From the NCBI GenBank assembly GCA_963840035.1, contig CAWIXE010000003.1, positions 416,001 through 480,000 of the forward strand: a stretch of DNA of 64,000 nucleotides, read 5' to 3'. Below the pieces are notes generated by a model. That model did no database searches. It had not been told where the DNA came from and worked only from the letters and a program-made list of their open reading frames with translations. Source of the DNA: a candidate division FCPU426 bacterium. GTDB taxonomy: Bacteria; Oederibacteriota; PGYV01; Palsa-1178. A program made the translations under genes and the position numbers. Below, one piece after another: positions 1-53,477 of the stretch; position 1 is the stretch's first letter; each line of letters begins with the position of its first letter.

Positions 1-3000
1 GGTAACGCAGACAGTGACAGAGACGATAACACAGACAATGACACAGACCGTAACACAAACGGTAACGCAGACAGTGACAGAGACGATAACGCAGACAATG
101 ACGCAGACCGTAACGCAAACGGTTACGCAGACAGTGACAGAAACGATAACGCAGACAATGACGCAGACCGTAACGCAAACGGTTACGCAGACAGTGACAG
201 AAACGATAACGCAGACAATGACACAGACCGTAACGCAAACGGTGACGCAGACAGTGACAGAGACTATAACGCAGACAATGACGCAGACCGTAACGCAAAC
301 GGCGACGCAGACAGTGACAGAGACGATAACGCAGACAATGACGCAAACCGTAACGCAAACGGTTACGCAGACAGTGACAGAGACGATAACGCAGACAATG
401 ACACAGACCGTAACGCAAACGGTAACGCAGACAGTAACGCAGACAGTGACAGAGACGATAACGCAGACAATGACGCAAACCGTAACGCAAACGGTAACGC
501 AGACAGTGACAGAAACTATAACGCAGACAATGACGCAAACCGTAACGCAAACGGTTACGCAGACAGTGACAGAAACGATAACGCAGACAATGACGCAGAC
601 CGTAACACAAACGGCGACGCAGACAGTGACAGAGACTATAACGCAGACAATGACGCAGACCGTAACGCAAACGGTTACGCAGACAGTGACAGAGACGATA
701 ACGCAGACAATGACACAGACCGTAACGCAAACGGTGACGCAGACAGTGACAGAGACTATAACGCAGACAATGACGCAGACCGTAACACAAACGGCGACGC
801 AGACAGTGACAGAGACTATAACGCAGACAATGACGCAGACCGTAACGCAAACGGTTACGCAGACAGTGACAGAGACGATAACGCAGACAATGACGCAGAC
901 CGTAACGCAAACGGTTACGCAGACAGTGACAGAGACGATAACGCAGACAATGACGCAGACCGTAACGCAAACGGTTACGCAGACAGTGACAGAGACGATA
1001 ACGCAGACAATGACGCAGACCGTAACGCAAACGGTTACGCAGACAGTGACAGAAACGATAACGCAGACAATGACACAGACCGTAACGCAAACGGTGACGC
1101 AGACAGTGACAGAGACTATAACGCAGACAATGACGCAGACCGTAACGCAGACAATAACTGAGACCGCTACGCAGACGGTGACCGAGACAGCAACACAGAC
1201 CGTGACGGAGACAATAACGCAGACCGTTACACAGACAGTAACACAAACAGTGACGCAGACCGTAACTCAAACCATAACTGAGACTGTGACCCAGACTATA
1301 ACAGAGACGATAACGCAAACCGTTACGCAGACAGTTACTCAGACTATTACTGAGACTGCAACACAGACTGTTACACAGACTGCGACTCAGACTGTCACAG
1401 AGACAATAACGCAGACCATTACTCAAACAGTAACCCAGACCATAACTGAAACAATTACACAGACAGTAACAGAGACGATTACTCAGACCGTGACGCAGAC
1501 AGCAACACAGACTGTTACTGAGACTGTCACGCAGACAATTACAGAAACGATAACTCAGACAATCACCCAGACAGTAACAGAGACGATAACGCAGACCATT
1601 ACACAGACAGTAACAGAGACTGCAACGCAGACAGTAACGGAGACGATAACTCAGACCGTGACGCAGACGGTAACGCAGACTGTTACAGAGACTGCAACCC
1701 AGACAGTAACGGAGACGATAACTCAGACTGTAACACAGACGGTAACGCAGACTGTTACAGAGACGGCAACACAAACAATTACAGAAACTATAACGCAGAC
1801 CATGACACAAACGGTTACGCAGACTGTAACTGAGACTGCAACGCAGACTGTTACTGAGACAGCCACGCAAACAATCACGGAAACCATAACGCAGACCATG
1901 ACACAGACGGTAACCCAGACAGTGACAGAGACTGCAACGCAGACAGTAACAGAGACGATAACTCAGACCATAACTCAGACGGTAACGCAGACTGTTACTG
2001 AGACGGCAACGCAAACAATTACAGAAACTGCAACACAGACAGCGACTGAGACTGCGACCCAGACAGTAACAGAGACGATAACGCAGACCATGACACAGAC
2101 GGTAACCCAGACAGTGACTGAGACTGCAACGCAGACAGTAACAGAGACGATAACTCAGACCGTGACACAGACGGTAACTCAGACTGTTACTGAGACTGCT
2201 ACACAAACAATTACAGAAACGATGACTCAAACAATCACGCAAACAGTCACCCAGACTGTTACAGAGACGATAACACAGACAATTACACAGACAGTGACAG
2301 AAACTGCAACGCAGACAGTGACAGAGACTGCAACCCAGACTGTAACAGAGACTGCAACCCAGACAGTGACTGAGACCGCAACCCAGACTGTAACAGAAAC
2401 TGTGACTCAGACGGTAACTGAGACAATAACGCAAACCATTACACAGACAATTACGGAGACGATCACGCAGACTATAACAGAGACTGCAACGCAGACAGTA
2501 ACTGAAACCGCAACACAGACAGTGACAGAAACAGCAACCCAGACTGTCACTGAGACCGCTACTCAGTCAGTGACGGAAACAATAACTCAGACTGTTACGC
2601 AAACTGTAACGCAGACAGTAACAGAGACAGCTACACAGACAGCTACACAGACAGTAACAGAAACTGCAACGCAGACAGTGACTGAGACAGTGACACAGAC
2701 AATTACAGAAACGAATACACAGACAGTGACAGAGACTGCAACGCAGACAATAACTGAGACGATAACGCAGACGGTGACAGAAACAGCGACACAGACTGTG
2801 ACTCAGACGGTAACAGAAACGATAACCCAGACTATTACACAAACAGTAACACAGACGATTACGGAGACTATAACGCAGACGGTTACGGAGACTGCGACGC
2901 AGACAGTGACAGAGACTGCAACCCAGACAGTAACAGAAACAGTAACGCAGACAGTAACAGAGACGGTCACGCAGACGGTTACGGAGACAGTGACACAGAC

Positions 3001-6000
3001 TGTAACAGAGACTGCCACTGAAACTATAACGGAGACAATAACACAGACCATAACTCAGACAGTTACGCAGACAATTACGGAGACAGCGACACAGACTGTA
3101 ACGGAGACTGCGACGCAGACAGTGACAGAGACTGCAACCCAGACAGTAACAGAAACAGTAACGCAGACAGTAACAGAGACGATCACACAGACGGTTACGG
3201 AGACTGCGACGCAGACAGTGACAGAGACTGCAACCCAGACAGTAACAGAAACAGTAACGCAGACAGTTACAGAGACGATCACACAGACGGTTACGGAGAC
3301 TGCGACGCAGACAGTGACAGAGACTGCAACCCAGACAGTAACAGAAACAGTAACGCAGACAGTAACAGAGACGGTCACGCAGACGGTTACGGAGACAGCG
3401 ACACAGACAGTGACAGAGACTGCAACCCAGACAGTAACAGAAACAGTAACGCAGACAGTAACAGAGACGATCACACAGACGGTAACGGAGACTGCGACGC
3501 AGACAGTGACAGAGACTGCAACCCAGACAGTAACAGAAACAGTAACGCAGACAGTAACAGAGACGATTACGCAGACGGTTACGGAGACTGCGACCCAGAC
3601 AGTGACAGAGACTGCCACTGAAACTATAACGGAGACAATAACACAGACCATTACTCAGACAGTTACGCAGACAATTACGGAGACAGCGACACAGACTGTT
3701 ACGGAGACAGCGACACAGACAGTGACAGAGACTGCAACCCAGACAGTAACAGAAACAGTAACGCAGACAGTAACAGAGACGATCACACAGACGGTAACGG
3801 AGACTGCGACGCAGACAGTGACAGAGACTGCAACCCAGACAGTAACAGAAACAGTAACGCAGACAGTAACAGAGACGATTACGCAGACGGTTACGGAGAC
3901 TGCGACCCAGACAGTGACAGAGACTGCCACTGAAACTATAACGGAGACAATAACACAGACCATTACTCAGACAGTTACGCAGACAATTACGGAGACAGCG
4001 ACACAGACTGTAACGGAGACTGCGACGCAGACAGTGACAGAGACTGCAACCCAGACAGTAACAGAAACAGTAACGCAGACAGTAACAGAGACGATCACAC
4101 AGACGGTTACGGAGACTGCGACGCAGACAGTGACAGAGACTGCAACCCAGACAGTAACAGAAACAGTAACGCAGACAGTAACAGAGACGGTCACGCAGAC
4201 GGTTACGGAGACAGCGACACAGACAGTGACAGAGACTGCAACCCAGACAGTAACAGAAACAGTAACGCAGACAGTAACAGAGACGATCACACAGACTGTA
4301 ACGGAGACTGCGACGCAGACAGTGACAGAGACTGCAACCCAGACAGTAACAGAAACAGTAACGCAGACAGTTACAGAGACGATCACACAGACGGTTACGG
4401 AGACTGCGACGCAGACAGTGACAGAGACTGCAACTGAAACCATAACGGAAACAATGACGCAGACCATAACAGAGACAGTGACGCAGACGATAACAGAGAC
4501 AGCAACGCAAACAGTAACAGAGACTGCGACGCAGACAGTGACAGAGACTGCAACAGAAACCATAACGGAAACAGTGACGCAGACCATAACAGAGACGGTA
4601 ACGCAGACAGTTACAGAGACGATAACGCAAACAATAACAGAGACGATGACCCAAACAATTACTGAAACAGTGACCCAGACAGCAACAGAGACAGCAACGC
4701 AAACAATAACAGAGACGATGACCCAAACAATTACTGAAACAGTGACCCAGACAGCAACAGAGACGGCAACAGAGACAGTGACGCAGACGGTAACAGAGAC
4801 TGCGACGCAGACAGTGACAGAGACTGCAACAGAAACCATAACGGAAACAATTACGCAGACCATAACAGAGACGGTAACGCAGACAGTAACAGAGACGATA
4901 ACGCAGACGATTACAGAGACAGCAACGCAAACAATAACAGAGACGATGACCCAAACAATTACTGAAACAGTGACCCAGACAGCAACTGAGACAGCAACTG
5001 AGACTGCAACTGAAACTGCCACAGAGACTGCAACTGAGACTGCAACTGAAACAGCCACAGAGACTGCAACAGAGACTGCAACTGAGACTGCAACTGAAAC
5101 AGCCACAGAGACAGCAACTGAGACAGCAACTGAGACAGCAACTGAGACAGCAACTGAGACAGCAACTGAGACAGCAACTGAGACGGCAACTGAGACAGCA
5201 ACTGAGACAGCAACAGAGACGGCAACAGAGACGGCAACAGAGACCGTGACGCAGACGGCAACAGAGACTGCGACGCAGACGGTGACAGAGACTGCAACAG
5301 AAACCATAACGGAAACAATGACGCAGACCATAACAGAGACGGTAACGCAGACAGTTACAGAGACGATAACGCAAACAATAACAGAGACGATGACCCAAAC
5401 AATTACTGAAACAGTGACCCAGACAGCAACAGAGACGGCAACAGAGACAGTGACGCAGACGGTAACAGAGACTGCGACGCAGACAGTGACAGAGACTGCA
5501 ACAGAAACCATAACGGAAACAATTACGCAGACCATAACAGAGACGGTAACGCAGACAGTAACAGAGACGATAACGCAGACAGTAACAGAGACGATAACGC
5601 AGACGATTACAGAGACAGCAACTGAGACTGCAACTGAAACAGCAACAGAGACTGCAACAGAAACAGCAACAGAAACAGCAACAGAAACAGCAACAGAAAC
5701 AGCAACTGAGACAGCAACTGAGACAGCAACTGAGACAGCAACAGAGACGGCAACAGAGACGGCAACAGAGACGGCAACAGAGACGGCAACAGAGACGGCA
5801 ACAGAAACGGCAACAGAGACAGTGACGCAGACGGTAACAGAGACTGCGACGCAGACAGTGACAGAAACTGCAACAGAAACCATAACGGAAACAATGACGC
5901 AGACCATAACAGAGACGGTAACGCAGACGATTACAGAGACAGCAACGCAAACAATAACAGAGACGATGACCCAAACAATTACTGAAACAGTGACCCAGAC

Positions 6001-8800
6001 GGCAACTGAGACGGCAACTGAGACGGCAACTGAGACGGCAACTGAGACGGCAACTGAGACGGCAACTGAGACGGCAACTGAGACGGCAACTGAGACGGCA
6101 ACTGAAACAGCTACAGAGACGGCAACAGAGACCGTGACGCAGACGGTGACAGAGACTGCAACAGAAACCATAACGGAAACAATGACGCAGACCATAACAG
6201 AGACGGTAACGCAGACAGTTACAGAGACGGTAACGCAGACGATTACAGAGACAGCAACGCAAACAATAACAGAGACGATGACCCAAACAATTACTGAAAC
6301 AGTGACCCAGACAGCAACTGAGACAGTAACTGAGACTGCAACTGAAACAGCCACAGAGACTGCAACAGAGACTGCAACTGAGACTGCAACTGAAACAGCC
6401 ACAGAGACTGCAACAGAGACTGCAACTGAGACTGCAACTGAGACTGCAACTGAGACTGCAACTGAGACTGCAACTGAAACAGCCACAGAGACAGCAACTG
6501 AGACAGCAACTGAGACAGCAACAGAGACAGCAACAGAGACGGCAACAGAGACGGCAACAGAGACGGCAACAGAGACCGTGACGCAGACGGCAACAGAGAC
6601 TGCGACGCAGACGGTGACAGAGACTGCAACAGAAACCATAACGGAAACAATGACGCAGACCATAACAGAGACGGTAACTCAGACAGTTACAGAGACGATA
6701 ACGCAGACGATTACAGAGACAGCAACGCAAACAATAACAGAGACGATGACCCAAACAATTACTGAAACAGTAACCCAGACAGCAACTGAGACTGCAACTG
6801 AAACAGCCACAGAGACTGCAACTGAAACAGCCACAGAGACAGCAACTGAGACTGCAACTGAGACAGCAACTGAGACAGCAACTGAGACTGCAACTGAGAC
6901 TGCAACTGAGACTGCAACTGAGACTGCAACTGAGACTGCAACTGAGACTGCAACTGAGACTGCAACTGAGACTGCAACTGAGACAGCAACTGAGACAGCC
7001 ACAGAGACTGCAACAGAGACAGCCACAGAGACAGCCACAGAGACAGCCACAGAGACAGCCACAGAGACAGCCACAGAGACTGCAACTGAGACTGCAACAG
7101 AGACTGCAACAGAGACTGCAACAGAGACTGCAACAGAGACTGCAACAGAGACTGCAACAGAGACTGCAACAGAGACAGCAACTGAGACAGCAACTGAGAC
7201 AGCAACTGAGACAGCAACTGAGACAGCAACTGAGACAGCAACTGAGACAGCAACTGAGACAGCAACTGAGACAGCAACTGAGACAGCAACTGAGACTGTT
7301 ACGGAGACAGCGACAGAGACTGTTACGGAAACAGCAACAGAGACTGCAACAGAAACCGCCACAGAGACTGCAACTGAGACTGCGACAGAGACAGCAACTG
7401 AGACAGCAACTGAGACTGCAACTGAGACTGCAACTGAGACTGCAACAGAAACAGCAACAGAAACAGCGACAGAAACAGCGACAGAAACAGCGACAGAAAC
7501 AGCGACAGAAACAGCGACTGAGACAGCGACAGAGACAGCAACTGAGACAGCAACAGAAACAGCAACAGAAACAGCAACAGAAACAGCAACAGAAACAGCA
7601 ACTGAGACAGAGACAGAGACTGTTACGGAGACAGCAACAGAAACAGCAACTGAGACAGCGACAGAGACTGCAACGGAAACAGCGACTGAGACTGCGACAG
7701 AGACAGCAACTGAGACTGCAACGGAGACAGCTACAGAAACCGCGACTGAGACAGTCACAGAGACTGTCACAGAGACAGCAACGGAAACAGTAACTGAGAC
7801 AGCAACTGAGACTGCTACAGAGACAGCAACGGAAACAGCAACGGAAACTGCAACTGAGACTGCAACTGAGACTGCAACTGAGACTGCAACTGAGACTGCA
7901 ACTGAGACTGCAACTGAGACTGCAACTGAGACTGCAACTGAGACTGCAACTGAGACTGCAACTGAGACTGCTACAGAGACTGCTACAGAGACTGCTACAG
8001 AGACAGCAACGGAAACAGCAACTGAGACAGTCACAGAGACTGCAACGGAGACAGCTACAGAAACCGCGACTGAGACAGTCACAGAGACTGCTACAGAAAC
8101 CGCGACTGAGACAGTCACAGAGACTGCAACGGAGACAGCTACAGAAACCGCGACTGAGACAGTCACAGAGACTGCTACGGAGACTGCTACAGAAACCGCG
8201 ACTGAGACAGTCACAGAGACAGCAACGGAAACAGCAACTGAGACAGCAACTGAGACAGCCACAGAGACAGCAACGGAAACAGCAACTGAGACAGCAACTG
8301 AGACTGCTACGGAGACTGCTACAGAAACCGCGACTGAGACAGTCACAGAGACTGCAACGGAGACAGCTACAGAAACCGCGACTGAGACAGTCACAGAGAC
8401 TGCAACGGAGACAGCCACAGAAACCGCGACTGAAACAGTAACAGAAACTGCCACGGAAACCGTAACAGAGACTGCGACTGAGACTGTGTCTGAGACTGTT
8501 ACTGAAACTGCGACAGAGACAGTCTCTGAAACTATAACGGAAACCGCTACTGAAACGGCTTCTGAAACAGTGACTGAGACGGTGACTGAAACACCTACAT
8601 TTACTGCAACAGAAACTGTTACTGAAACTGTGACAGAGACTGCGACAGAAACAGCTACAGAGACTTCCACGGAAACAGCAACTGAAACAGCCACAGAGAC
8701 TGCTACAGAAACTGCGACTGAAACAGTGACGGAGACAGCCACAGAGACGGCCACAGAGACTGCCACGGAAACAGCGACTGAAACAGTAACTGAGACTGTC
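1..8800 (+). repeat. Coding tandem array of 12-nt units with 60-nt and larger higher-order repeats
   Basis: The 60-nt lines starting at 841, 901 and 961 are identical; perfect ACTGCAACTGAG runs near 6890-6980 and 7850-7970. Confidence 0.95.
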
Positions 8801-10015
8801 ACTGAAACACCTTCGGATACGGAAACAGCCAGCGCTACGGCCACACCGACCATAACGACTTCAGTATCGGCAACCAGCACTTATACAACTACCTCGTCAG
8901 CAACTAAAACCGGGACACCTACAGGCACGTCCACTGTGACCGCGACCGGAACTTTCACAAACACCAATACACCGCCGGCTACGCCTACATTTACATCAAC
9001 ACCGACATTGACCGGAACACCGTCACTTACTATGACTTCCACATGGACTAATACGGAATCTCCTACTGCTTCGCCCACAAGCAGCGTTTCGCCGACGACA
9101 TCGCCGACGCCCGAATACTACATGAAAATAGCTGTATATAACTCCGCGGGCGAGCAGGTAAAAGAGATAATTACGTCAGGCGCTTATTCCATACCGGATT
9201 CATTCAACCTGGACAAGACTACGTTCAGCCCGGATGACGGAAGCGTGGCGCAGATAAGCGTTGACCAGACGGTCGTTAGCTGGGACGGCAAGAACCAGCA
9301 GGGCAAGAATGTTGAGAACGGAATATATTACGTTAAGGTTTCCATAGTTGACGATTACGGGTTCAGCCATACGCTGATAAAGGAAGTTACTGTGTTGACA
9401 AACGGCATTATGGCCGAACTCAGGATATATAACAGCGCCGGTGAAGTCGTAAAGAGGATAGATATTGAAGGGCTTACACTCACAGGTTCCACCGTGCTTG
9501 ATGTAAATCCGAAAGCGCCTGGCGCCTTCTCGCCGGGTGACGGGGATTCAGGTGCAGCAGAAGCCATATTTACATACATGGGCCATGACATAGCATGGGA
9601 CGGCACAAATGACGGCGGAAAGATTGTCGGGAACGGCGTGTACAGGGCTGTGGTTGTCAGGACGGATAATAAAGGCTACACATCAGTCGCTGAAAATTAC
9701 CTCACCGTGCTGCATGGCAATTATGAAGTGGTCGCGAACATAAGGATAATACCTAACCCGATAGACATGAGAAAGACATCGGTAATAACCATAAAGTATG
9801 ACGCCATGAACGGGGCCGTGGTTGTCGCGAAAATATACAACCTTGCAGGAGAACTCATCAGGGAGCTCAAACCGTTTAATGGCGCGAATGAGATAGTCTG
9901 GGATATAAAGTATGATGCTACAATTTCCCAGGGGCTTTACGTGGCGGTTATTCACGCTGAAACACCGCAGGGCATGAGAAAGACGGTCGTGGCAAAGTTC
10001 ACAATAATAAAGTAA
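2..10015 (+). CDS. Giant Thr-rich repeat surface protein with C-terminal FlgD-Ig-like / T9SS-CTD-like domains (5' partial; frame is open from the window edge)
   Basis: Open frame from nt 2; ~2900 aa of T-[E/Q]-T-[A/V/I/M] repeats, an S/T/P linker, then modules with VYNSAGE..VK / WDGKN..G..V.NG.YY motifs and a final IIPNP..IYNLAGELIREL..WD..GLYV domain. Confidence 0.85.
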   Translation, partial: VTQTVTETITQTMTQTVTQTVTQTVTETITQTMTQTVTQTVTQTVTETITQTMTQTVTQTVTQTVTETITQTMTQTVTQTVTQTVTETITQTMTQTVTQTATQTVTETITQTMTQTVTQTVTQTVTETITQTMTQTVTQTVTQTVTQTVTETITQTMTQTVTQTVTQTVTETITQTMTQTVTQTVTQTVTETITQTMTQTVTQTATQTVTETITQTMTQTVTQTVTQTVTETITQTMTQTVTQTVTQTVTETITQTMTQTVTQTATQTVTETITQTMTQTVTQTVTQTVTETITQTMTQTVTQTVTQTVTETITQTMTQTVTQTVTQTVTETITQTMTQTVTQTVTQTVTETITQTMTQTVTQTVTQTVTETITQTMTQTVTQTITETATQTVTETATQTVTETITQTVTQTVTQTVTQTVTQTITETVTQTITETITQTVTQTVTQTITETATQTVTQTATQTVTETITQTITQTVTQTITETITQTVTETITQTVTQTATQTVTETVTQTITETITQTITQTVTETITQTITQTVTETATQTVTETITQTVTQTVTQTVTETATQTVTETITQTVTQTVTQTVTETATQTITETITQTMTQTVTQTVTETATQTVTETATQTITETITQTMTQTVTQTVTETATQTVTETITQTITQTVTQTVTETATQTITETATQTATETATQTVTETITQTMTQTVTQTVTETATQTVTETITQTVTQTVTQTVTETATQTITETMTQTITQTVTQTVTETITQTITQTVTETATQTVTETATQTVTETATQTVTETATQTVTETVTQTVTETITQTITQTITETITQTITETATQTVTETATQTVTETATQTVTETATQSVTETITQTVTQTVTQTVTETATQTATQTVTETATQTVTETVTQTITETNTQTVTETATQTITETITQTVTETATQTVTQTVTETITQTITQTVTQTITETITQTVTETATQTVTETATQTVTETVTQTVTETVTQTVTETVTQTVTETATETITETITQTITQTVTQTITETATQTVTETATQTVTETATQTVTETVTQTVTETITQTVTETATQTVTETATQTVTETVTQTVTETITQTVTETATQTVTETATQTVTETVTQTVTETVTQTVTETATQTVTETATQTVTETVTQTVTETITQTVTETATQTVTETATQTVTETVTQTVTETITQTVTETATQTVTETATETITETITQTITQTVTQTITETATQTVTETATQTVTETATQTVTETVTQTVTETITQTVTETATQTVTETATQTVTETVTQTVTETITQTVTETATQTVTETATETITETITQTITQTVTQTITETATQTVTETATQTVTETATQTVTETVTQTVTETITQTVTETATQTVTETATQTVTETVTQTVTETVTQTVTETATQTVTETATQTVTETVTQTVTETITQTVTETATQTVTETATQTVTETVTQTVTETITQTVTETATQTVTETATETITETMTQTITETVTQTITETATQTVTETATQTVTETATETITETVTQTITETVTQTVTETITQTITETMTQTITETVTQTATETATQTITETMTQTITETVTQTATETATETVTQTVTETATQTVTETATETITETITQTITETVTQTVTETITQTITETATQTITETMTQTITETVTQTATETATETATETATETATETATETATETATETATETATETATETATETATETATETATETATETATETATETATETATETATETATETVTQTATETATQTVTETATETITETMTQTITETVTQTVTETITQTITETMTQTITETVTQTATETATETVTQTVTETATQTVTETATETITETITQTITETVTQTVTETITQTVTETITQTITETATETATETATETATETATETATETATETATETATETATETATETATETATETATETATETATETATETVTQTVTETATQTVTETATETITETMTQTITETVTQTITETATQTITETMTQTITETVTQTATETATETATETATETATETATETATETATETATETATETATETVTQTVTETATETITETMTQTITETVTQTVTETVTQTITETATQTITETMTQTITETVTQTATETVTETATETATETATETATETATETATETATETATETATETATETATETATETATETATETATETATETATETATETATETATETVTQTATETATQTVTETATETITETMTQTITETVTQTVTETITQTITETATQTITETMTQTITETVTQTATETATETATETATETATETATETATETATETATETATETATETATETATETATETATETATETATETATETATETATETATETATETATETATETATETATETATETATETATETATETATETATETATETATETATETATETATETATETATETATETATETATETATETVTETATETVTETATETATETATETATETATETATETATETATETATETATETATETATETATETATETATETATETATETATETATETATETATETATETATETETETVTETATETATETATETATETATETATETATETATETATETATETVTETVTETATETVTETATETATETATETATETATETATETATETATETATETATETATETATETATETATETATETATETATETATETATETVTETATETATETATETVTETATETATETVTETATETATETATETVTETATETATETATETVTETATETATETATETATETATETATETATETATETATETATETVTETATETATETATETVTETATETATETATETVTETATETVTETATETVSETVTETATETVSETITETATETASETVTETVTETPTFTATETVTETVTETATETATETSTETATETATETATETATETVTETATETATETATETATETVTETVTETPSDTETASATATPTITTSVSATSTYTTTSSATKTGTPTGTSTVTATGTFTNTNTPPATPTFTSTPTLTGTPSLTMTSTWTNTESPTASPTSSVSPTTSPTPEYYMKIAVYNSAGEQVKEIITSGAYSIPDSFNLDKTTFSPDDGSVAQISVDQTVVSWDGKNQQGKNVENGIYYVKVSIVDDYGFSHTLIKEVTVLTNGIMAELRIYNSAGEVVKRIDIEGLTLTGSTVLDVNPKAPGAFSPGDGDSGAAEAIFTYMGHDIAWDGTNDGGKIVGNGVYRAVVVRTDNKGYTSVAENYLTVLHGNYEVVANIRIIPNPIDMRKTSVITIKYDAMNGAVVVAKIYNLAGELIRELKPFNGANEIVWDIKYDATISQGLYVAVIHAETPQGMRKTVVAKFTIIK

Positions 10016-10025
10016 TTTTTAAATA

Positions 10026-10058
10026 ACAAAGGGCACGGGCTTAAACCGTGCTCTTTGT
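10026..10058 (+). terminator. Probable intrinsic terminator after the giant gene
   Basis: ACAAAGGGCACGG-gcttaaa-CCGTGCTCTTTGT hairpin followed by a T-rich tail. Confidence 0.6.
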
Positions 10059-10083
10059 ATTTCCACGGGATGAGCGGAGAAAA

Positions 10084-11538
10084 ATGAAGATACTGACCGA
10101 AGGCTTTGAAAGGTATTTGCGGGATGAGTCCAATACGGAAAGCAGCGGAATAGACGCTGTGTACATTCCTGAAGGCTCCTCGGAGATTGAAGAACTTCTA
10201 AGAAAAAACGGCCGGTTTACTTTATATGCCGGAGGCACGGGCATAGCCGGTGGGGCTACATCGGACGGCGGAAGCATAATTTCCACTGAAAATCTGAAAT
10301 TTCTTCAAATAGACAGCCATTTAATGCAGGTAACAGCGGGCGCAGGCGTGCTGCTAAAGGATCTCAACGCGGAACTGGCCAAAAACGGCTTATGGTATCC
10401 TGTGGATTCCACCGAGCAGACAGCCACAGTAGGGGGCAATGCCGCGACAAACGCGTGGGGAGCCAGGAGTTACGGTTATGGCAGTATCAGAAACTTTATT
10501 AACGCGGTGCATATTATCGTACCCGGCCAGCCGCAGGTAAGGATATCCAGGGACTGCGCCGAAGCAAACGGGCTTGAATTGCCATGGAAGGTTAACATGT
10601 CAGGCGGACATGGGCTTATACTTCCCGGCGCCGGGGGTAAGAACGTATTGATGGAGGATACGGCAGCGAGGCTACCTTATAAGAATAACGCCGGTTACTT
10701 TATGAAAAAAGATATGGATTTTGTGGATATTCTGATTGGAAGCGAAGGCACGCTTGGGGTCATAACTATGGTGGAGCTTGAAGTCAAAAAAATGCCTTAT
10801 GAAATATGCGTTTTTATGATGTTTTTCAACAATCTGGATGCGGCTTTTAATCTGGTAAAAAATGTAAAGGCGGGCAGCCATAAATATCAGCCGTGTTCGC
10901 TTGAAATCATGGATGGCGAATCTTTAAAACTGCTCAGGGAAAAAGGAAAGAATATAGGGCAGGCTGGCGCTGCGGTTTTTATGGAGTATGAGGCTGGCAG
11001 CGAAAAAGAAGAAATGGAAATAAATGACGCGGTATATGCAATAGCCTCAGGAGCGGGGATTGATCCTGATGACGTTATGGTTTCCAGCACAAAAGAAAAG
11101 AAAAATTATATATATGATATCCGGGAGTCCCTGCCACAGGCGGTAAATGAGCATATACGGGCGAGGAGCCTTCGCAAAGTGTCCACTGATTTTGCCGTAA
11201 ATGACGATAAGTTTGACTCTATGACAGACCTTTACAGGGTTTTCAGGGAAAAATCGGCCATGCGGAGCGTCATGTTCGGGCACGCAGGGGATAATAACCT
11301 GCACATCAACTTTCTTCCTGAAAATCCGGCGGAATATGAAAAAGCGCGTGAACTTTATGATGAAATGGCGGCGGCAATAGGCTTAATGGGCGGGACCGTG
11401 GCAGCGGAGCACGGCGTCGGTAAAATGAAAAAGGCATACTTAAAATACATGTATAAAGAATCAACCATGGATGTTATGAGGAATATTAAAAAGGCCTTTG
11501 ACCCGGATAATAAGCTTAATAGGGGAAACATACTATAA
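10084..11538 (+). CDS. FAD-binding oxidoreductase, GlcD/D-2-hydroxyacid dehydrogenase family
   Basis: GGTGIAGGA, ATVGGNAATNAWG, GSEGTLGVIT, GHAGDNNLH and AEHGVGK motifs; ATG 10084 follows GGAG. Confidence 0.85.
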   Translation: MKILTEGFERYLRDESNTESSGIDAVYIPEGSSEIEELLRKNGRFTLYAGGTGIAGGATSDGGSIISTENLKFLQIDSHLMQVTAGAGVLLKDLNAELAKNGLWYPVDSTEQTATVGGNAATNAWGARSYGYGSIRNFINAVHIIVPGQPQVRISRDCAEANGLELPWKVNMSGGHGLILPGAGGKNVLMEDTAARLPYKNNAGYFMKKDMDFVDILIGSEGTLGVITMVELEVKKMPYEICVFMMFFNNLDAAFNLVKNVKAGSHKYQPCSLEIMDGESLKLLREKGKNIGQAGAAVFMEYEAGSEKEEMEINDAVYAIASGAGIDPDDVMVSSTKEKKNYIYDIRESLPQAVNEHIRARSLRKVSTDFAVNDDKFDSMTDLYRVFREKSAMRSVMFGHAGDNNLHINFLPENPAEYEKARELYDEMAAAIGLMGGTVAAEHGVGKMKKAYLKYMYKESTMDVMRNIKKAFDPDNKLNRGNIL

Positions 11539-12650
11539 TGAAATGGATAAAAACCGGCTCACTTCAGGATGGCTCTGAATGCGCCATAGATGTTATTGAC
11601 CTCAAAGGCAATCCGCTTGTAAACAAAGGATCGACAGTAAGCGGCGCCGCGATTGAAAAGCTAAAATACGCCGCTATTCCATTTATCTATGTAAAAGACG
11701 CGGATACAATTGTGAGCAATGTGTATCCGATGAAAATAATTGCAGAAATGCTCCGTGTTCTTTATTATTTCAGCGCATCCGGCGGGGAAAACGCTGAAAT
11801 CCTTAAACGCTACAACTCTGATGAAGTCAGGCGGTTTCTCTCCTACTCAAATGACGCGGGCAGCAGGATAGCGTACGGGCACATTTTCAGTTTTTTCGCC
11901 GGTGAAATGTTGTCGGCCCTTAAAAAGGGCGAAAAGCAGTGCTATGACTTCAGGGATTACAGGGACAAGAGCACATATTACAGTTTCCACGCTGTAAATG
12001 CAGCCTGCATCAGCGCTGTCATGGCATATAATATGGGCCTTCCGGATAAGGACATAACAGACCTTATTACGGGCACACTTTTGTATGACATAAAAATGAT
12101 AATACATAAGTTTGTCAATGACAGCAGGGAACTTGTGGAAATTGAAAAGAACGAAATGCGGCAGCATCCGGCCGAAGGGTATGAGGCCATAAGAAGAATA
12201 TTCGGCCTGTCAGCCAGCGCCGCAGCCATAGCCCTGCAGCACCATGAAAGGATTGACGGCAGCGGCTATCCCAAAGGGTTAAAGGGCGGCGATATCAACC
12301 TTTTAAGCAGGATAGCGGCTATAGCTGACGTCTATGACGCGCTCACAAGCAACAGGCCTTTCAGGCCTGCGTATAAGCCTGATGAGGCGTGGGACTATAT
12401 GGTTTCAAATTCCGGGGTGTTATTTGATGAACAGGTTATGGAAGCGTTTAAGCAGTCGATCCCGAAGTATATGCCGGGGGACAGCGTTGAACTAAGCGAC
12501 GGCAGGAGTGCGGTAGTACTGAAAAACAGTCCCGGAAAGTTCAACAAGCCGGGGATAAATATAATTGAAAAAAACGGCAAAAGTGCTATAATCTCTTGCG
12601 GTGAAAAAACCGTTTTTTCAATCATTAAAACCCTGGACTCAGTCCGCTGA
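11538..12650 (+). CDS. HD-GYP domain protein (HD dyad reads YD)
   Basis: QHHERIDGSGYPKGL and IADVYDALTSNRPFR present; LLYDIK at the usual LLHDIG position. Confidence 0.85.
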   Translation: MKWIKTGSLQDGSECAIDVIDLKGNPLVNKGSTVSGAAIEKLKYAAIPFIYVKDADTIVSNVYPMKIIAEMLRVLYYFSASGGENAEILKRYNSDEVRRFLSYSNDAGSRIAYGHIFSFFAGEMLSALKKGEKQCYDFRDYRDKSTYYSFHAVNAACISAVMAYNMGLPDKDITDLITGTLLYDIKMIIHKFVNDSRELVEIEKNEMRQHPAEGYEAIRRIFGLSASAAAIALQHHERIDGSGYPKGLKGGDINLLSRIAAIADVYDALTSNRPFRPAYKPDEAWDYMVSNSGVLFDEQVMEAFKQSIPKYMPGDSVELSDGRSAVVLKNSPGKFNKPGINIIEKNGKSAIISCGEKTVFSIIKTLDSVR

Positions 12651-12663
12651 AGGAGTAACATAT

Positions 12664-13458
12664 ATGGGGAGAATTATTTCCGTCGCCAACCAGAAAGGCG
12701 GCGTAGGCAAGACTACAACCACGGTAAATACCGCAAGCGCCATAGCCGCAAGGGGAAAAAAAGTCCTTGTAGTGGATATTGACCCGCAGGGCAATGCCAC
12801 GCTTGGGCTCGGACTGGATAAGGAATCCGAGGATGAGAACGCGTACGAGCTTTTAATCGGCGAAGCGCCAGTCAGGTCGGTAATTAAAAAGACAGCGTAT
12901 GAGAACCTTGATATTATACCGTCAAACAGCAGCCTTGCCGGCGCTGAAATAGAGCTGGTAAACGAGGAAGAAAGGGAAACCCGCCTTAAAAAAGCCCTGG
13001 ACGAGATAAAGGATGAATACGATTATATTTACATAGATTCCCCGCCTTCGCTGGGCCTTTTAACCATTAACTCACTGGCGGCCTCAGATTCGGTAATGAT
13101 ACCCATGCAGTGCGAGTTTTACGCCCTTGACGGGCTGGCCAGGCTTCTGGAAACCATAACCGCGATTAAAGCCTCGCTTAATACGCACCTGGTCATCGAG
13201 GGCGTATTGATAACGATGTTTGACGGACGGACCTCGCTGTCCCTTCAGGTTGTGGAAGAGGTAAAGAAAAAATTTAAGGACAAGGTTTATGACACCGTAA
13301 TACCCAGGAACGTAAGGCTATCCGAGGCGCCCAGTTTCGGACAGCCCATCGATATATACGACAGAAATTCAAAGGGCGCGCAGGCCTATGACAGGCTGGC
13401 GGCGGAAATAACAGGCATTAAAGAGGCGCAAAAAAGCGCGCCGGGAAAGGGGAAATAA
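12664..13458 (+). CDS. parA: Chromosome partitioning ATPase ParA/Soj
   Basis: NQKGGVGKTTT, DIDPQGNAT, IDSPPSLG and IPRNVRLSEAPSFG; ATG 12664 follows GGAG. Confidence 0.95.
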   Translation: MGRIISVANQKGGVGKTTTTVNTASAIAARGKKVLVVDIDPQGNATLGLGLDKESEDENAYELLIGEAPVRSVIKKTAYENLDIIPSNSSLAGAEIELVNEEERETRLKKALDEIKDEYDYIYIDSPPSLGLLTINSLAASDSVMIPMQCEFYALDGLARLLETITAIKASLNTHLVIEGVLITMFDGRTSLSLQVVEEVKKKFKDKVYDTVIPRNVRLSEAPSFGQPIDIYDRNSKGAQAYDRLAAEITGIKEAQKSAPGKGK

Positions 13459-13459
13459 C

Positions 13460-14311
13460 ATGGCAAGACAGGCATTAGGAAAAGGGCTTGGCGCGCTCAT
13501 ACCGGGGGCAAAGTCAAAAAATAGCGGAGCGGATAATAAAGGTTTTTCGGAGATTGCCATTGCGGAAATAAAACCAAATCCAAACCAGCCGAGGAAGCAT
13601 TTTACCCCGGAAAAAATGCAGGAAATGATCGAGTCGATAAAGCGTAACGGCGTGCTTTCGCCCATTCTCGTAAGGGAAATGGGCAATAAATATGAAATAA
13701 TTGCGGGCGAGCGCAGGTTTATAGCGGCCCAGCGCGCGGGTTTAAAGGCAGTCCCGGTTGTCATTAAACACGTATCACCGGCGCAGCAGCAGGAATACGC
13801 CTTAATAGAAAATATAATAAGGGAAGACCTTAATCCTGTTGAAGTGGCTATCGCGTATAAAAGCCTTATGGAAGAGCACAAGCTCACGCAGGAGCAGATA
13901 GCCGACAGGCTCGGGGTTAACAGGGCATCCGTGGCTAATACGGTCCGCATTCTTAAACTTCCTCAGGAAGTGCAGTCATATATTGTCAACGGCCAGCTTG
14001 AGTTCGGGCACGCCAAGGTCCTAGCCGGTGTTGATGATAAGTCCAGGCAGAAAGTGCTCGCGAACATGGCTGTAAAAAGGGGCCTCTCTGTAAGGGAACT
14101 GGAAGCCATGATATCTAAACCAGCAGGTAAAAAATCATCCGGCAAAAAGGCAACCTCGACAGAAATGAAAAGGGTTGAGGATAAGTTGAAACTTCACTTT
14201 GGGACAAAAGTAAGCGTCAAAGGCGATTATAAAAAAGGCAAGATAGAAGTGGAATACTACAGCTCCGAGGATTTTGACAGGATACTGGAGATATTAAAGA
14301 TTCATATGTAG
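13460..14311 (+). CDS. parB: Chromosome partitioning protein ParB/Spo0J
   Basis: ALGKGLGALIP, NPNQPRK, IIAGERR and ALIENIIREDLNPVE motifs. Confidence 0.95.
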   Translation: MARQALGKGLGALIPGAKSKNSGADNKGFSEIAIAEIKPNPNQPRKHFTPEKMQEMIESIKRNGVLSPILVREMGNKYEIIAGERRFIAAQRAGLKAVPVVIKHVSPAQQQEYALIENIIREDLNPVEVAIAYKSLMEEHKLTQEQIADRLGVNRASVANTVRILKLPQEVQSYIVNGQLEFGHAKVLAGVDDKSRQKVLANMAVKRGLSVRELEAMISKPAGKKSSGKKATSTEMKRVEDKLKLHFGTKVSVKGDYKKGKIEVEYYSSEDFDRILEILKIHM

Positions 14312-14314
14312 AGC

Positions 14315-14457
14315 GAATTTTAGATTCTGGATTCTAGATTCTGAATTAGGAAATGAAACAATAAAACAAAAAGCCCCGGTTTTACCGGGGCTTTTTGTTT
14401 TATTGTTTGTGGTGTTATGTTTTTAATCCAAAATCTAAAATCCAGAATCTAGAATTC
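14315..14457. repeat. Inverted heptamer-array element (unit RGATTCT) enclosing a terminator
   Basis: Left GAATTTT AGATTCT GGATTCT AGATTCT GAATTA; right TAATCC AAAATCT AAAATCC AGAATCT AGAATTC. Confidence 0.9.
14356..14408. terminator. Bidirectional intrinsic terminator between convergent genes
   Basis: Perfect 25-bp inverted repeat AAACAATAAAACAAAAAGCCCCGGT-ttt-ACCGGGGCTTTTTGTTTTATTGTTT. Confidence 0.9.
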
Positions 14458-14458
14458 C

Positions 14459-14893
14459 TTATTTAACCTTCTTTATCGGCGCTGTTGATGCCTTGTCTAC
14501 TTCTGACTGGAGCTGTTTAATCCAGGCATCATATTCGGGTTTGATCTCGTTTAGTTTCTGCCTTGACTGTTTTACCCATTTTGATTCGGGCGGGGTAAAT
14601 AGGTCGACGACCGTCTGGAACTCCACGTAGGCGTTTTTAAGAGCGTTATCTTCCATGAGCATCTGGTATTCAATCTCGTTGATCTCTTTTTTCGCGAGTT
14701 TTTCGTCATAATATTTCTTTTTCATGTCGGGGTTCCTGTAAAAATCAAGGAATTTGACCCCTTCGTTATATTCCCTTTTTGCCCTTTTAACAACCTCAAA
14801 ATAAGCCATGAAATAAGCGATGATCAGGCATCCTATTACAAGTCCCGCGATGATCAGGGCGTCTTTCTTCTTGTCTTTTTTATCTTCAGCCAT
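14459..14893 (-). CDS. Hypothetical single-TM membrane protein
   Basis: 144-aa ORF with AGGAGG RBS, one hydrophobic helix and its own consensus promoter. Confidence 0.8.
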   Translation of the reverse strand: MAEDKKDKKKDALIIAGLVIGCLIIAYFMAYFEVVKRAKREYNEGVKFLDFYRNPDMKKKYYDEKLAKKEINEIEYQMLMEDNALKNAYVEFQTVVDLFTPPESKWVKQSRQKLNEIKPEYDAWIKQLQSEVDKASTAPIKKVK

Positions 14894-14920
14894 GAATTCC
14901 TCCTAATATTTGATTTTTTG

Positions 14921-14949
14921 ATTATAGAATGAAAAACCGTTATTGTCAA
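14921..14949 (-). promoter_or_regulatory. Sigma70-type promoter for the 144-aa gene
   Basis: TTGACA (14949-14944), 17 nt, TATAAT (14926-14921) on the minus strand. Confidence 0.8.
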
Positions 14950-14971
14950 TATAACAGATTGGTTAGCAGGG

Positions 14972-15035
14972 TGATTCTGAATTCTAGATTCTGGATTCTG
15001 GATTGAAAACAAGGCGTAATCCAGAATCTAGAATC
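14972..15035. repeat. Inverted heptamer-array element (unit RGATTCT)
   Basis: TGATTCT GAATTCT AGATTCT GGATTCT GGATT, 13-nt spacer, AATCC AGAATCT AGAATC. Confidence 0.9.
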
Positions 15036-15040
15036 GCTCC

Positions 15041-15069
15041 TTGACACTAATTGAATATTATTATAAGTT
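15041..15069 (+). promoter_or_regulatory. Probable sigma70-type promoter for the recX-alaS operon
   Basis: TTGACA at 15041, 17 nt, TAAGTT. Confidence 0.55.
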
Positions 15070-15131
15070 AATAGTACCCGGAATATGTGCTATATATAAT
15101 AAGGAAGAAAACACGGCAAAAGAGGTATCAA

Positions 15132-15608
15132 ATGGCAAAAAAAGAGACGTCAGCGGCTGATTACGCCCTTAAAATGCTGGGAATACGCGATTATGGTGAG
15201 GCGGAACTCAGGGTAAAACTTGAGGCCAAAAATTATCCGGCTGATGAAATTGACAGGGTAATGGCTTCACTTAAGTCTAAAAAATTTATAAACGACAGCG
15301 CTTATGCAGCGAAAATACTCCATAAATACTCGGTAATCATGCCGTCAGGACGGGAATTAGTTAAGCTTAAAATGGAAGAAAAATCCATTAAACCTGTAGA
15401 ATACACACTGGCGCTTGAAAAAAGGGACGAGCTTGAAACGGCAAGAAGGGCTTTTAAGATGAAATTCGGCAAAACGGCCGTTTCTGAAAACCCGAATAAA
15501 ACAAGGCAAAAAGCAGCCAATTATTTGGCAACAAAAGGTTTTGATTATGATATAATTGAAAATATCCTGAACGATGAAATTAAAGGAGGAAATGACTTTG
15601 AACAGTAA
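15132..15608 (+). CDS. recX: Regulatory protein RecX
   Basis: ALKMLGIRDYGEAELRVKL, FINDSAYA and YLATKGF; directly upstream of alaS; ATG follows GAGG. Confidence 0.8.
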   Translation: MAKKETSAADYALKMLGIRDYGEAELRVKLEAKNYPADEIDRVMASLKSKKFINDSAYAAKILHKYSVIMPSGRELVKLKMEEKSIKPVEYTLALEKRDELETARRAFKMKFGKTAVSENPNKTRQKAANYLATKGFDYDIIENILNDEIKGGNDFEQ

Positions 15609-18219
15609 CGAACTGAGAAAATCATACTTGCAGTTTTTCGCGGAAAGGGGCCATACCATAAGGCCTTCTTCTTCGCTTATACCTGATGACGCCTCGCTGC
15701 TATTTACCGTGGCCGGGATGGTGCCTTTTAAGAACCATTTTCTCGGCACGATACCGCTTACTTTTACAAGGGCTACGTCATCCCAGAAATGCATCAGGAC
15801 AAACGACATAGATAATGTCGGCCGTACGCGCAGGCACCATACTTTCTTTGAAATGCTCGGCCATTTTTCATTCGGCGATTATTTTAAGAAAGAGGCCATC
15901 GAGTGGATATGGGAATTCCTGACAGAAACCGTAAAACTGCCCAAAGACAGGCTTTATATAACGGTATACTTAGACGACGATGAAGCTTATGAAATATGGA
16001 ATAAAAAGATGAAAATCCCGGCGGACCGCATTTTCAGGCTGGGCAAGGAGACGAATTTCTGGGAAATGGGGCCGGTGGGGCCGTGCGGCTACTGCAGCGA
16101 GATTTATTTTGATTTTGAGGGCGGCAATAAGGGAAAAGTTACAGCCGAAGACATTGAGAAGAACGACGACAGGTTCCTGGAAATATGCAACAGCGTTTTT
16201 ACGGAGTTTGACAAGCAGCCTGACGGCACGCTCGGGCCGCTTAAGCAGAAGAACATAGATTTCGGAATGGGGCTTGAAAGGCTCGCTGTTGTCTCACAGG
16301 GGGTGTTTTCAAACTTTGAAACAGACCTTTTCATGCCCATCATAAAGGAAGTGGCTGACAAGGCCGGCACCGTATACGGAAAAAACCCGGATACCGATGT
16401 GTCCTTAAGGGTTGTAGCCGACCACGCCAGGGGCGTTACTTTTTTAATCGGAGACGGGGTGCTGCCTTCGAATGAAGGCCGCGGATATGTTTTAAGAAGG
16501 CTCATCAGGCGCGCAGTGCGCCACGGCAGGCGGCTCGGGTTCAGGGAAACATTTTTATCAAAGGTGGTGCCTGTAGTCCTGCATATCATGGGCGAGGCTT
16601 ATCCGGAAACGGCGCAGAGGAAAGATTACATAATGCAGATTATAAAACTGGAAGAGGATAAGTTTCAGGAGACCATGGATAAGGGCATTGAAATATTAAA
16701 CCAGGAAATTGAAACACTTAAAAAATCAGGCGCAAGCGTGCTCTCCGGGGATATAGTTTTTAAGCTTTATGACACCTTCGGATTCCCCATAGAAATAACA
16801 GAGGAAATACTGACTGAACAGAAATTATCAGCCGACAAGGAAGGGTTTAAGAAAAACATGGAAGCCCAGAGGGAAGCCGCGAAGAAAGCGTGGAAAGGCG
16901 TGAATGTCAGCGCTGCGGACACCGTACCCGAGGAAATAATTAAAAATATAGCGGTCACTAAGTTCATGGGATATGAGGCGTTTGAAGAAAACGGATGCCG
17001 GGTTATCGCCATAGTTAAGGATAAAAAGAAAATATCTGAGGCAGGGCAGGGTACACAAGCCCTTGTTATACTCGATAAAACGCCGTGCTATGGCGAAGGC
17101 GGAGGCCAGGTGGGCGACCAGGGAATGATGTCGTCCGGGGATGTATCAGCTGAAATCCTTGACACACAGAAGACCGAGGACCGTTTTGTTCACAGGGTAA
17201 AGGTCGTCAAGGGAATTATAAAAGAAGGCGATACGCTGAAAGTATCCGTCAACAGGGAATCGCGCGCCGCGATTATGAAGAATCATACCGGCACGCACCT
17301 TCTGCAGGCTGCTTTGCGCAATATTTTAGGGGCGCATGTGGAACAGGCCGGTTCTTATGTCGGCCCTGACAGGCTCAGGTTTGACTTCACGCACTTTGCC
17401 GCTTTAACCGAAGAGGAAACAAAAAGGACCGAAAAGATGGTTAATAAGTGGGTGCAGGAATCCATCCCGGTAAGCGTGAAGGTTATGACCGTAACTGAAG
17501 CAAAAAACACGGGCGCCATGGCCCTTTTTGAGGAAAAATATAAAGGCGAGGTAAGGGTGGTTTCAGTGGGCGATGTGTCCAAGGAACTCTGCGCGGGAAC
17601 GCATCTGCGTAACATAGGCGAGATAGGGTTGTTTAAGATAGTGTCTTCAGCCTCTACTGCGGCCGGAATAAGAAGGATAGAGGCCTTAACCGGAGAGGCC
17701 TCATACAACATGGTTGTTGAAAATGATAATTTCATTAAGGAACTCAAGGCGTCCTTTAAGACAACGGATATGAACGAACTCGAAGAGAAGATAAAGAAAC
17801 TGATGAAAGACTATAAGGAAATGGAAAAAAAGGTCGACGGCGTTAAAAAAGCGGGAATGATGAAGAATGTGGATGATTACATAAACTCGGCAAAGGAAAT
17901 AAACGGGGTTAAGGTGATTACCATAAAATTTACCGATGTTGAAAAGGACGCTGTCCGCCAGTTGGGCGATGTGCTCCGGGAAAAGGTAAAGAAAGCAGTG
18001 ATAGTCATAGCCACCATAAATGAAGGCAAGGCTGGTTTCCTTTCAATGGTGACTGACGACTTAACAGACAGGTTTGACGCTTCAAAGATAGTCAAGCAGG
18101 TAGCCGCCATATGCGGCGGAGGCGGAGGCGGCAAGAAGAACATGGCCGAAGCCGGGGCAAAAGACATCTCAAAAATAGACGAAGCTCTTTTAGAGACGGA
18201 AAAAGCCGTTAAAGGATGA
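15592..18219 (+). CDS. alaS: Alanine--tRNA ligase
   Basis: LLFTVAGMVPFK, RHHTFFEMLG, NHTGTHLL and ELCAGTH; ATG 15592 follows AGGAGG. Confidence 0.98.
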   Translation: MTLNSNELRKSYLQFFAERGHTIRPSSSLIPDDASLLFTVAGMVPFKNHFLGTIPLTFTRATSSQKCIRTNDIDNVGRTRRHHTFFEMLGHFSFGDYFKKEAIEWIWEFLTETVKLPKDRLYITVYLDDDEAYEIWNKKMKIPADRIFRLGKETNFWEMGPVGPCGYCSEIYFDFEGGNKGKVTAEDIEKNDDRFLEICNSVFTEFDKQPDGTLGPLKQKNIDFGMGLERLAVVSQGVFSNFETDLFMPIIKEVADKAGTVYGKNPDTDVSLRVVADHARGVTFLIGDGVLPSNEGRGYVLRRLIRRAVRHGRRLGFRETFLSKVVPVVLHIMGEAYPETAQRKDYIMQIIKLEEDKFQETMDKGIEILNQEIETLKKSGASVLSGDIVFKLYDTFGFPIEITEEILTEQKLSADKEGFKKNMEAQREAAKKAWKGVNVSAADTVPEEIIKNIAVTKFMGYEAFEENGCRVIAIVKDKKKISEAGQGTQALVILDKTPCYGEGGGQVGDQGMMSSGDVSAEILDTQKTEDRFVHRVKVVKGIIKEGDTLKVSVNRESRAAIMKNHTGTHLLQAALRNILGAHVEQAGSYVGPDRLRFDFTHFAALTEEETKRTEKMVNKWVQESIPVSVKVMTVTEAKNTGAMALFEEKYKGEVRVVSVGDVSKELCAGTHLRNIGEIGLFKIVSSASTAAGIRRIEALTGEASYNMVVENDNFIKELKASFKTTDMNELEEKIKKLMKDYKEMEKKVDGVKKAGMMKNVDDYINSAKEINGVKVITIKFTDVEKDAVRQLGDVLREKVKKAVIVIATINEGKAGFLSMVTDDLTDRFDASKIVKQVAAICGGGGGGKKNMAEAGAKDISKIDEALLETEKAVKG

Positions 18220-48526: not shown

Positions 48527-48544
48527 ACCGGCTCGGAGGAAAAA

Positions 48545-50602: not shown

Positions 50603-50618
50603 GAAAAGGAGGATATAA

Positions 50619-51182: not shown

Positions 51183-51248
51183 AAAACAGTCTTCAGCGGC
51201 GCTAAAAACTGCTATAATATTACGGGGATTTCAATTACAGGGATATGC

Positions 51249-52775: not shown

Positions 52776-52776
52776 T

Positions 52777-53475: not shown

Positions 53476-53477
53476 TA

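Follow-up and report, generated by a model that had tools for sequence, protein, structure and literature searches.

A 5,421-residue threonine-ladder protein with a putative stalk and a candidate split-domain docking system in a probable member of the Goldbacteria

The DNA described here is a stretch of 64,000 nucleotides (the window, C3:416001-480000) from G000, a three-contig genome that is 98% complete and whose phylum, and likewise its order, is probably Goldbacteria. The nearest Atlas genome cluster (score 0.97) consists mostly of Ca. Goldiibacteriota, as judged by only two members that have a record. The window opens inside a giant gene (C3:409750-426015, + strand) encoding 5,421 residues, which begins at an ATG 6,250 bases upstream and is unbroken over 16.3 kb. 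Its frame is open at window position 2 and stops at 10015, so that residues 2085-5421 and the stop lie at 2-10015 (+). The protein is ordered as a hydrophobic signal of ~30 residues, a head of ~700 residues in which small domains are separated by short Thr ladders, a long Thr tract and a tail of the kind associated with the type IX secretion system (T9SS). A first-pass annotation of the window had placed the N-terminal domain outside it, and the signal and head were indeed found once the upstream sequence was recovered. The tract, of the type T-[Q/E]-T-[V/I/A/L/M], reaches ~4,200 residues because ~1,300 T-Q-T-V/L residues precede the window. A Thr/Ser/Pro-rich junction (8801-9112, +) joins it to the C-terminal 300 residues (9113-10015 with the stop, +), which contain FlgD Ig-like stretches and a T9SS type A sorting domain that scores 29.2 bits against TIGR04183 (cut-off 23) and 27.6 against PF18962 (cut-off 27).

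Window positions 2-8800 (+) form a single open frame of 2,933 codons (residues 2085-5017). Of the 1,466 positions that share one parity, 1,462 are Thr, a share of 0.997 compared with a maximum of 0.54 in 1,000 residue shuffles, and Ser occurs only five times. The first-pass annotation had reported Thr at nearly every second position, a T-E/Q-T-hydrophobic period of four, a gradient towards acidic TETA runs near the 3' end and no Pro, Gly or basic residues until ~8590, all of which is borne out. T-[Q/E]-T-[V/I/A/M] fits 709/715 tetrads from window 5 to ~8590, and 1,010/1,019 tetrads are regular over residues 867-4948. The first Pro of the window part is at 8594, and Gly, Lys, Arg and His are absent from 2-8800. 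In all, 4,085 consecutive residues (864-4948, starting 3,661 bases upstream of the window and occupying 2-8593 (+) within it) contain neither Gly nor Pro, and 2,125 of them also lack Asn and Asp. Along the tract E/(E+Q) rises from 0.00 to 1.00 (Spearman 0.68) and the Ala share of hydrophobic sites from 0.00-0.05 to 0.91 (Spearman 0.60). The longest pure TETA run, of 42 copies, lies in the acidic, tail-proximal part (6785-7288, +), and the net charge of the tract, ~ -461, is mostly near the tail. The 20-residue units that had been assigned to the 5' end are present as an array (17-1170, +; residues 2090-2454) in which a Met-containing core recurs 19 times at 20-residue (60-bp) spacing with one gap of 24, but they do not mark the 5' end of the tract, which extends ~1,300 residues further upstream. 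The initial observation is correct but understates the feature.

The 733 twelve-base units of the tract comprise 181 DNA variants yet only 16 peptides, and the Thr codons of neighbouring units differ by 968 synonymous and eight non-synonymous changes. These counts indicate that the Thr positions are under constraint at the protein level. Copies of repeat blocks lie 12 to 1,332 bp apart and keep the register. As the longest exact repeat measures 383 bp and the 20 longest repeats are all in register, a simple assembly duplication is unlikely. Two sequencing runs (shares 0.08 and 0.05) gave flank matches that were scattered contigs of relatives, and were silent on the length of the tract, the habitat and expression; no RNA data set was listed as containing it. 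A Pfam DUF445 match to the tract was taken as a low-complexity artefact.

T-x ladders occur in 109 of the 3,745 open reading frames (ORFs) that made up the G000 set for genome-wide scans, and 68 of these proteins have the same tail, as do 49 of the 57 proteins with the longest ladders. Such ladders are a general spacer of this genome, and the giant protein is a real, constrained and extreme member of a lineage-wide family of Thr spacers. A general acid gradient among the paralogues was rejected (31 up, 23 down of 57, p 0.34). Two further giants, at C1:1140591-1152572 (3,993 codons) and C1:1199769-1211141 (3,790 codons), contain ~1,900-2,100 ladder residues, and the first repeats the TQTA-to-TETA polarity toward its tail. 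Longer frames at contig ends (C2:415-21114, 6,899 codons; C1:1216297-1235064, 6,256 codons) are not T-x ladders.

Syntenic orthologues of the giant gene, recognised by a close tail match (E ~1e-74 or lower), are present in 16 of 23 genomes of the same order. All lie upstream of parA, with parB next in 15 and the contig ending first in one, and every orthologue frame runs off a contig end within the repeat. Fourteen were scored for composition, the other two being too short. Thr at alternate positions is conserved, and the hydrophobic/polar alternation is 0.73-1.00 in long tracts. The units themselves vary from TQTV to TETV, TETI/TETA, TPTV-TETV and TDTV/TNTV; Pro occupies 12-25% of non-Thr sites in 5/14, Glu is at nearly every polar site in four over the part recovered, and Gly is at most 1.6% throughout. 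In G000 it is the acidic end that adjoins the tail (0.019 vs 0.398), as it is in 6/6 orthologues whose ends are securely assigned (0-0.025 vs 0.07-0.42). This polarity reflects persistence rather than independent origin, since the orthologues are kin and four come from one family. A G017 fragment was left out of the count as it begins like the first gene of the upstream cluster described below and not like the giant gene, and no N-terminal half was recoverable for G004, G006, G008, G013, G015, G018, G019, G022 and G023. Fragments on both sides in G002 total at least 3,245 residues, provided they do not overlap. In G027, a single-contig genome from another order of the phylum, one frame of 6,082 codons includes ~4,400 ladder residues, there of the T-A/N/S type. 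This frame (L089, G027:C1:2640000-2659999) has a similar tail and, on either side, ConA-like domains; by eye its period-2 ladder contains a dozen or so near-exact long repeats. In G010 (99% complete) glyS directly adjoins the FAD oxidase gene, hence the gene cluster is absent from the site. No longer homologues (526-2,000 residues) were found at 1e-30, which is weak evidence, and a search of genome contigs for related loci returned distant tail matches only. Seven of 20 protein-database matches were short fragments named 'flagellar hook assembly protein FlgD'; with all 16 orthologues broken at contig ends, such genes are in practice hidden from database users.

The sequence that leads into the window (C3:396001-416000, L001, in whose own coordinates the following + strand features are given) contains the start of the giant gene and three genes before it. 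A consensus promoter site at 8991-9019 precedes passenger gene 1 (9121-11022, 633 aa) and a second at 11400-11428 precedes passenger gene 2 (11590-12921, 443 aa), which is followed by passenger gene 3 (12952-13683, 243 aa). Each passenger ends in a DUF11 (CLIPPER) domain that stops early, here called a catcher (10561-10881, 12649-12912 and 13429-13680, respectively). The giant gene starts at 13750, with the signal running to ~13839, followed by head domain 1 (13840-14199), tag 1 (14251-14346), head domain 2 (14734-15324), tag 2 (15469-15564), tag 3 (15640-15735) and the start of the Gly/Pro-free tract (16339). The tags are three orphan hairpins of the pattern N-x9-N-x-V set between Thr ladders. 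The unfinished CLIPPER domains upstream and the orphan Asn hairpins in the head go beyond the first-pass annotation and appear to constitute a new element.

The CLIPPER domain (708-828) links Lys715 to Asn806 by an intramolecular bond, for which Asp748 is the presumed catalyst (PMC12617251; this and the other papers cited are drawn on in excerpt). All 22 catchers examined match PF01345 and keep the Lys and Asp without exception. Both residues align to PDB 9IFR, where they are 34 residues apart compared with 33 in the paper. The domain of passenger gene 3 ends at Pfam position 86 of 114, and the longest catcher matches end at position 83-84 of a 122-position profile. An Asn-x-small motif follows the core in 2/22 catchers as against 23/27 internal domains; judged from sequence, the Asn strand is missing from the catcher chain. 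Half-motifs of the tags scored 7.6 on the 48 residues after internal domain cores, 0.36 on random windows and -4.0 on catcher tails, and the difference between complete-domain ends and random windows has p 5e-9, for paralogues that are not independent. Catcher and tag numbers are equal in 7/8 loci: three of each in G000 and G002, two in G011 and G012, and two in G003, G005 and G007, where the second gene has both a tag and a catcher. When the tag profile was run over the ORF set, the top new match (12.6 bits) lay directly downstream of a truncated domain. In G000 three further genes with truncated CLIPPER domains (C2:1208273-1210642, C2:1217940-1220258 and C2:1662613-1665063) are each followed immediately by a Thr-ladder gene that includes a hairpin-like island; the profile found one of these islands and missed the other two. 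Two of the three islands are a Cys-containing variant. A further candidate pair at C3:265931-268767 was rejected, as it appears to be a complete DUF11 domain frameshifted between two frames, by pseudogene formation or assembly error. Catchers and head hairpins likely form a tag-and-catcher scaffold. No catcher has a T9SS-type tail (0/22), which suggests that the passengers leave the cell on the stalk.

Head domain 2 was modelled as a concanavalin A-like sandwich with a predicted local distance difference test (pLDDT) score of 92.9. It has a weak DUF1349 match and no significant sequence match in the PDB, and was placed by fold search alone. In structure it comes closest to the C-terminal domains of GH43 and to two uncharacterised proteins (Z 20.4-20.8, root-mean-square deviation 2.1-2.6, 164-179 residues aligned), the GH43 C-terminal sandwich itself giving Z 20.8, deviation 2.5 and 178 aligned. 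Head domain 1 had no family match. The heads of orthologues vary, with a malectin domain in G002 and CBM3 in G012. The heads of all three genomes point to carbohydrate contact, with the reservation that a shared fold alone proves no function.

Candidate genes for glycosylation and export were looked for across the phylum set of 41 genomes, with 14 control genomes for the transferase scans. TMEM260-like proteins have nine matches in G000 and occur in 39/41 genomes of the phylum and 1/14 controls. PMT_2 has 24 matches in G000, of which 21 are over the cut-off and 16 were rescanned. No OGT-like GT41 protein was found in a search to which the positive control responded. TMEM260, an O-mannosyltransferase of proteins, has distant homologues in bacteria, and its known targets are IPT domains (PMC10214176; bioRxiv 10.64898/2026.09.21.753134); the tract may be O-glycosylated by such candidate GT-C transferases. 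For export, G000 encodes BamA, 39 PorV-family matches (27 over the cut-off) and a SprA-like frame of 2,177 codons (C2:374823-381356) with four collinear matches, all below the cut-off; PF14349 (SprA_N) was not matched, and the controls were silent too. The stalk complex might leave by a T9SS-like route. A review limits the T9SS to Bacteroidetes (PMC11611037). One of the 39 PorV-family matches, below the cut-off at 69.1 bits, lies in the window at 22752-24155.

Taken together, we favour, with somewhat better than even confidence, an interpretation of the tract as an extended, putatively O-glycosylated stalk, a threonine analogue of the serine-rich repeat adhesins. The stalk's likely role would be to keep three clipped-on partner proteins, together with a sugar-binding head, well away from the cell. 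Scaled from Fap1, its predicted reach is 0.5-0.6 micrometre, and the computed limit for a fully extended chain is 1.4-1.5 micrometre. The protein would be exported by Sec into the periplasm, where membrane GT-C transferases, TMEM260-like or PMT-like, would add sugars to the alternating Thr and stiffen the chain. The unfinished domain of a passenger would then take up one hairpin as its last two strands, rebuilding the Lys-Asp-Asn triad across two chains, and this triad may lock passenger and stalk covalently. The tail would send the complex through a reduced T9SS-like channel of SprA-like and PorV-like proteins, the tail-less passengers travelling out with the stalk. In the final arrangement the acidic end would sit beside the tail, presumably at the cell surface, with the neutral end at the tip. 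In interest and testability alike, the multi-site split-CLIPPER docking at the tip stands first within this scheme. In its widest form the scheme would describe an enzyme-free, covalently locked scaffold on a micrometre-scale Thr glycostalk, with natural tag/catcher capture in the periplasm, a minimal T9SS without known motor or sortase, and a conserved gradient that orients the stalk; this we put forward tentatively and hold to be somewhat less probable than not.

Several results weigh against the stalk and docking scheme. PMT_2 also matches in 9/14 control genomes, no transferase gene was found among the 48 neighbouring proteins scanned around the giant gene, and the target of human TMEM260 is a sequon found in IPT domains rather than a T-x ladder (PMC10214176; bioRxiv 10.64898/2026.09.21.753134). 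SprA-like matches occur in 40/41 genomes of the phylum and exceed the family cut-off in only 4/41, and PorU and GldM had no match, the controls being silent too, a gap in the scheme at the anchoring step. On the docking side, the search pattern itself partly accounts for the Asn columns that are invariant in the tags. Searched alone, the tags returned nothing from Pfam or the PDB; against a profile of 12 complete-domain sequences they failed to align (hhalign E 0.44), and they scored weakly on the complete-domain profile. Pairing catchers with tags by similarity produced near ties (r 0.725, 0.719, 0.715) over 1,152 assignments. G001 has one intact catcher and two tags, its second gene being cut short, and in G000 an orphan catcher gene (C1:911471-912829) has no stalk gene beside it. 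Finally, AlphaFold2 run without an alignment on the residues of window 2-601 returned a single long helix and not an extended chain. The last domain of the orphan catcher is nearly the same as that of passenger gene 2 and could compete for the same tag.

The first-pass annotation had left open whether the tract is a stalk or a beta-structured ice-binding filament. The stalk half of that proposal fits the architecture, the orthologues and the GT-C transferases, and the filament half is unsupported. TxT arrays do form the ice-binding face in several solenoid proteins, but the known coils, 10 to ~24 residues long, include turn residues, and their in-facing x positions are small or hydrophobic (PMC13080227). 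Here 4,085 residues contain no Gly or Pro and half of the x sites are Gln or Glu, which would face inward at each fourth position, so that the geometry that defines the solenoid family is not found. That the orthologue units differ and often contain Pro (5/14) speaks against a solenoid that binds ice and in favour of an extended stalk that is likely O-glycosylated; an ice-binding or ice-nucleating solenoid with an all-Thr face is, of the readings weighed here, the most improbable by our estimate. Structure prediction of a repeat segment, which the annotation had proposed, gave a single helix. This helix is the basis for reading the tract as one long alpha helix or helical bundle, towards which the TETA composition also leans. 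The best model has pLDDT 73.9 and two of five exceed 70, but the other three are at 28.8-46.0, the predicted template modelling score is 0.32 for a single-sequence model, Thr makes up half of the residues, and Pro falls at every eighth residue in several orthologues. We do not trust this model, and consider a helical tract very unlikely. Binding of cations or minerals by the acidic TETA part as its main job is suggested by the charge concentrated near the tail, yet G003, G005 and G007 are only ~7% acidic at non-Thr sites even there, and the Glu residues are four apart without Asp/Gly loops; this too is improbable, if slightly less so than a helix.

More weight attaches to two other explanations, both of which we still regard as unlikely. 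The T-x spacer could be functional while its extreme length and gradient arose by neutral local tandem duplication or, in part, by assembly. The in-register copying of repeat blocks is what such duplication would leave, the paralogues have no general gradient, the cluster is missing from its site in G010, and the reads give no hold on the length. Set against this are the modest size of the longest exact repeat, the unbroken frame, the long tracts of G002 and G027, and a polarity that persisted while the units turned over, and we rate neutral length as a minor contender. Somewhat ahead of it, though still well short of probable, comes a tract that is unglycosylated and whose copies assemble into a silk- or amyloid-like beta-sheet fibre, mainly through neutral TQTV, while the acidic part would keep the base in solution. 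In its favour are a strict alternation of period two that includes beta-branched residues, the polarity conserved in 6/6 orthologues, and Chou-Fasman values (1.26 for beta and 0.97 for helix in the distal part; 0.91 and 1.14, respectively, in the TETA part). The Pro-rich orthologues and the four that are near all-Glu would be poor material for stacked sheets, however, and some hundred proteins use the same ladders as short spacers between domains.

The proposed glycosylated stalk most resembles the Gram-positive serine-rich repeat proteins (SRRPs; Fap1, GspB, PsrP, SraP), with which it shares the order of signal, binding region, long repeat of hydroxyl residue and x, and surface signal (PMC2952246, PMC6973325). 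In the model of Fap1, ~2,000 residues of S(V/I/E) dipeptides make up an extended, glycosylated strand 250-300 nm long, on which the head is projected (PMC2952246). The repeat of the giant protein is about twice as long and alternates Thr where SRRPs alternate Ser, and its signal is an ordinary one of ~30 residues in contrast to the extended one of ~90. Neither LPxTG nor KxYKxGKxW is present in the giant protein. No accessory SecA2/SecY2 and GtfA/GtfB cluster of the SRRP kind was found among the 48 neighbouring proteins; G000 has one SecA only, below the SecA2 cut-off, and no GtfA over the cut-off, the model matching generic C-terminal parts only. The diderm host, T9SS-type tail, charge gradient and docking hairpins in the head are further differences. 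With membership failing on Ser, signal, LPxTG, SecA2 and GtfA, the protein would work like an SRRP but is not one. The TxT solenoids of Tenebrio, budworm, Rhagium, inchworm and bacterial ice nucleators share Thr at alternate positions (PMC13080227), whereas the tract has no coil periodicity with turn residues, has charged or amide residues at in-facing sites, and runs to thousands of residues.

Like T9SS type A cargo of Bacteroidota (TIGR04183, PF18962; PMC11611037), the giant protein has a Sec signal and a sorting domain over the cut-off, in a genome with PorV-family genes and a candidate SprA-like one. It differs in that the host is probably outside Bacteroidota, the SprA-like protein of G000 scores below the cut-off, and PorU and GldM are unmatched (controls silent). 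The catchers keep the Lys and Asp of CLIPPER/DUF11 (PF01345, PDB 9IFR; PMC12617251) in 22/22 cases and the tags resemble its last two strands. The bond as known forms inside a single chain; the candidate Asn strand here is on another protein, in up to three copies per stalk. Domain scans of the locus and head proteins gave no cohesin or dockerin match. Cellulosome scaffoldins dock several separately encoded modules on one anchored scaffold, and engineered tag/catcher pairs complete a split Ig-like domain with a peptide. Unlike these, the passengers here are not recognisable enzymes, and the pairs would be natural.

If the scheme is correct, the locus would encode a convergent Thr-based counterpart of serine-rich repeat adhesins in a diderm phylum, with other export and glycosylation machinery. 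The docking elements would amount to a natural multi-site isopeptide system, open to direct testing by means of an 84-residue domain and a 23-residue peptide, with possible use as orthogonal protein-ligation pairs, and a T9SS-like route would be open to proteins without a sorting tail. Goldbacteria have been recovered on cellulose and are rich in cellulases and binding modules (PMC7031533); the excerpted text of that paper does not mention FlgD, threonine or linkers, nor does that of a giant-gene preprint (10.1101/2023.11.21.568195) mention Goldbacteria or FlgD. The words 'split' and 'SpyCatcher' are absent from the main text of PMC12617251. In the freely accessible main texts searched, we found no description of such Thr stalks or of a split DUF11 domain.

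Around the giant gene, a hairpin lies just 3' of its stop (window 10033-10051) and is terminator-like on the minus strand only. Further along the window, at 46811-55526, kdpABC is followed by a split KdpD, consisting of a sensor-less histidine kinase, a response regulator and a separate kinase-less sensor-domain protein. Upstream of the passenger genes, L001:1964-4366 encodes an 800-residue protein that has no Pfam match and whose C-terminal part is cyclase-like by eye; this gene is kept upstream of glyQ/glyS in G002 and G010.

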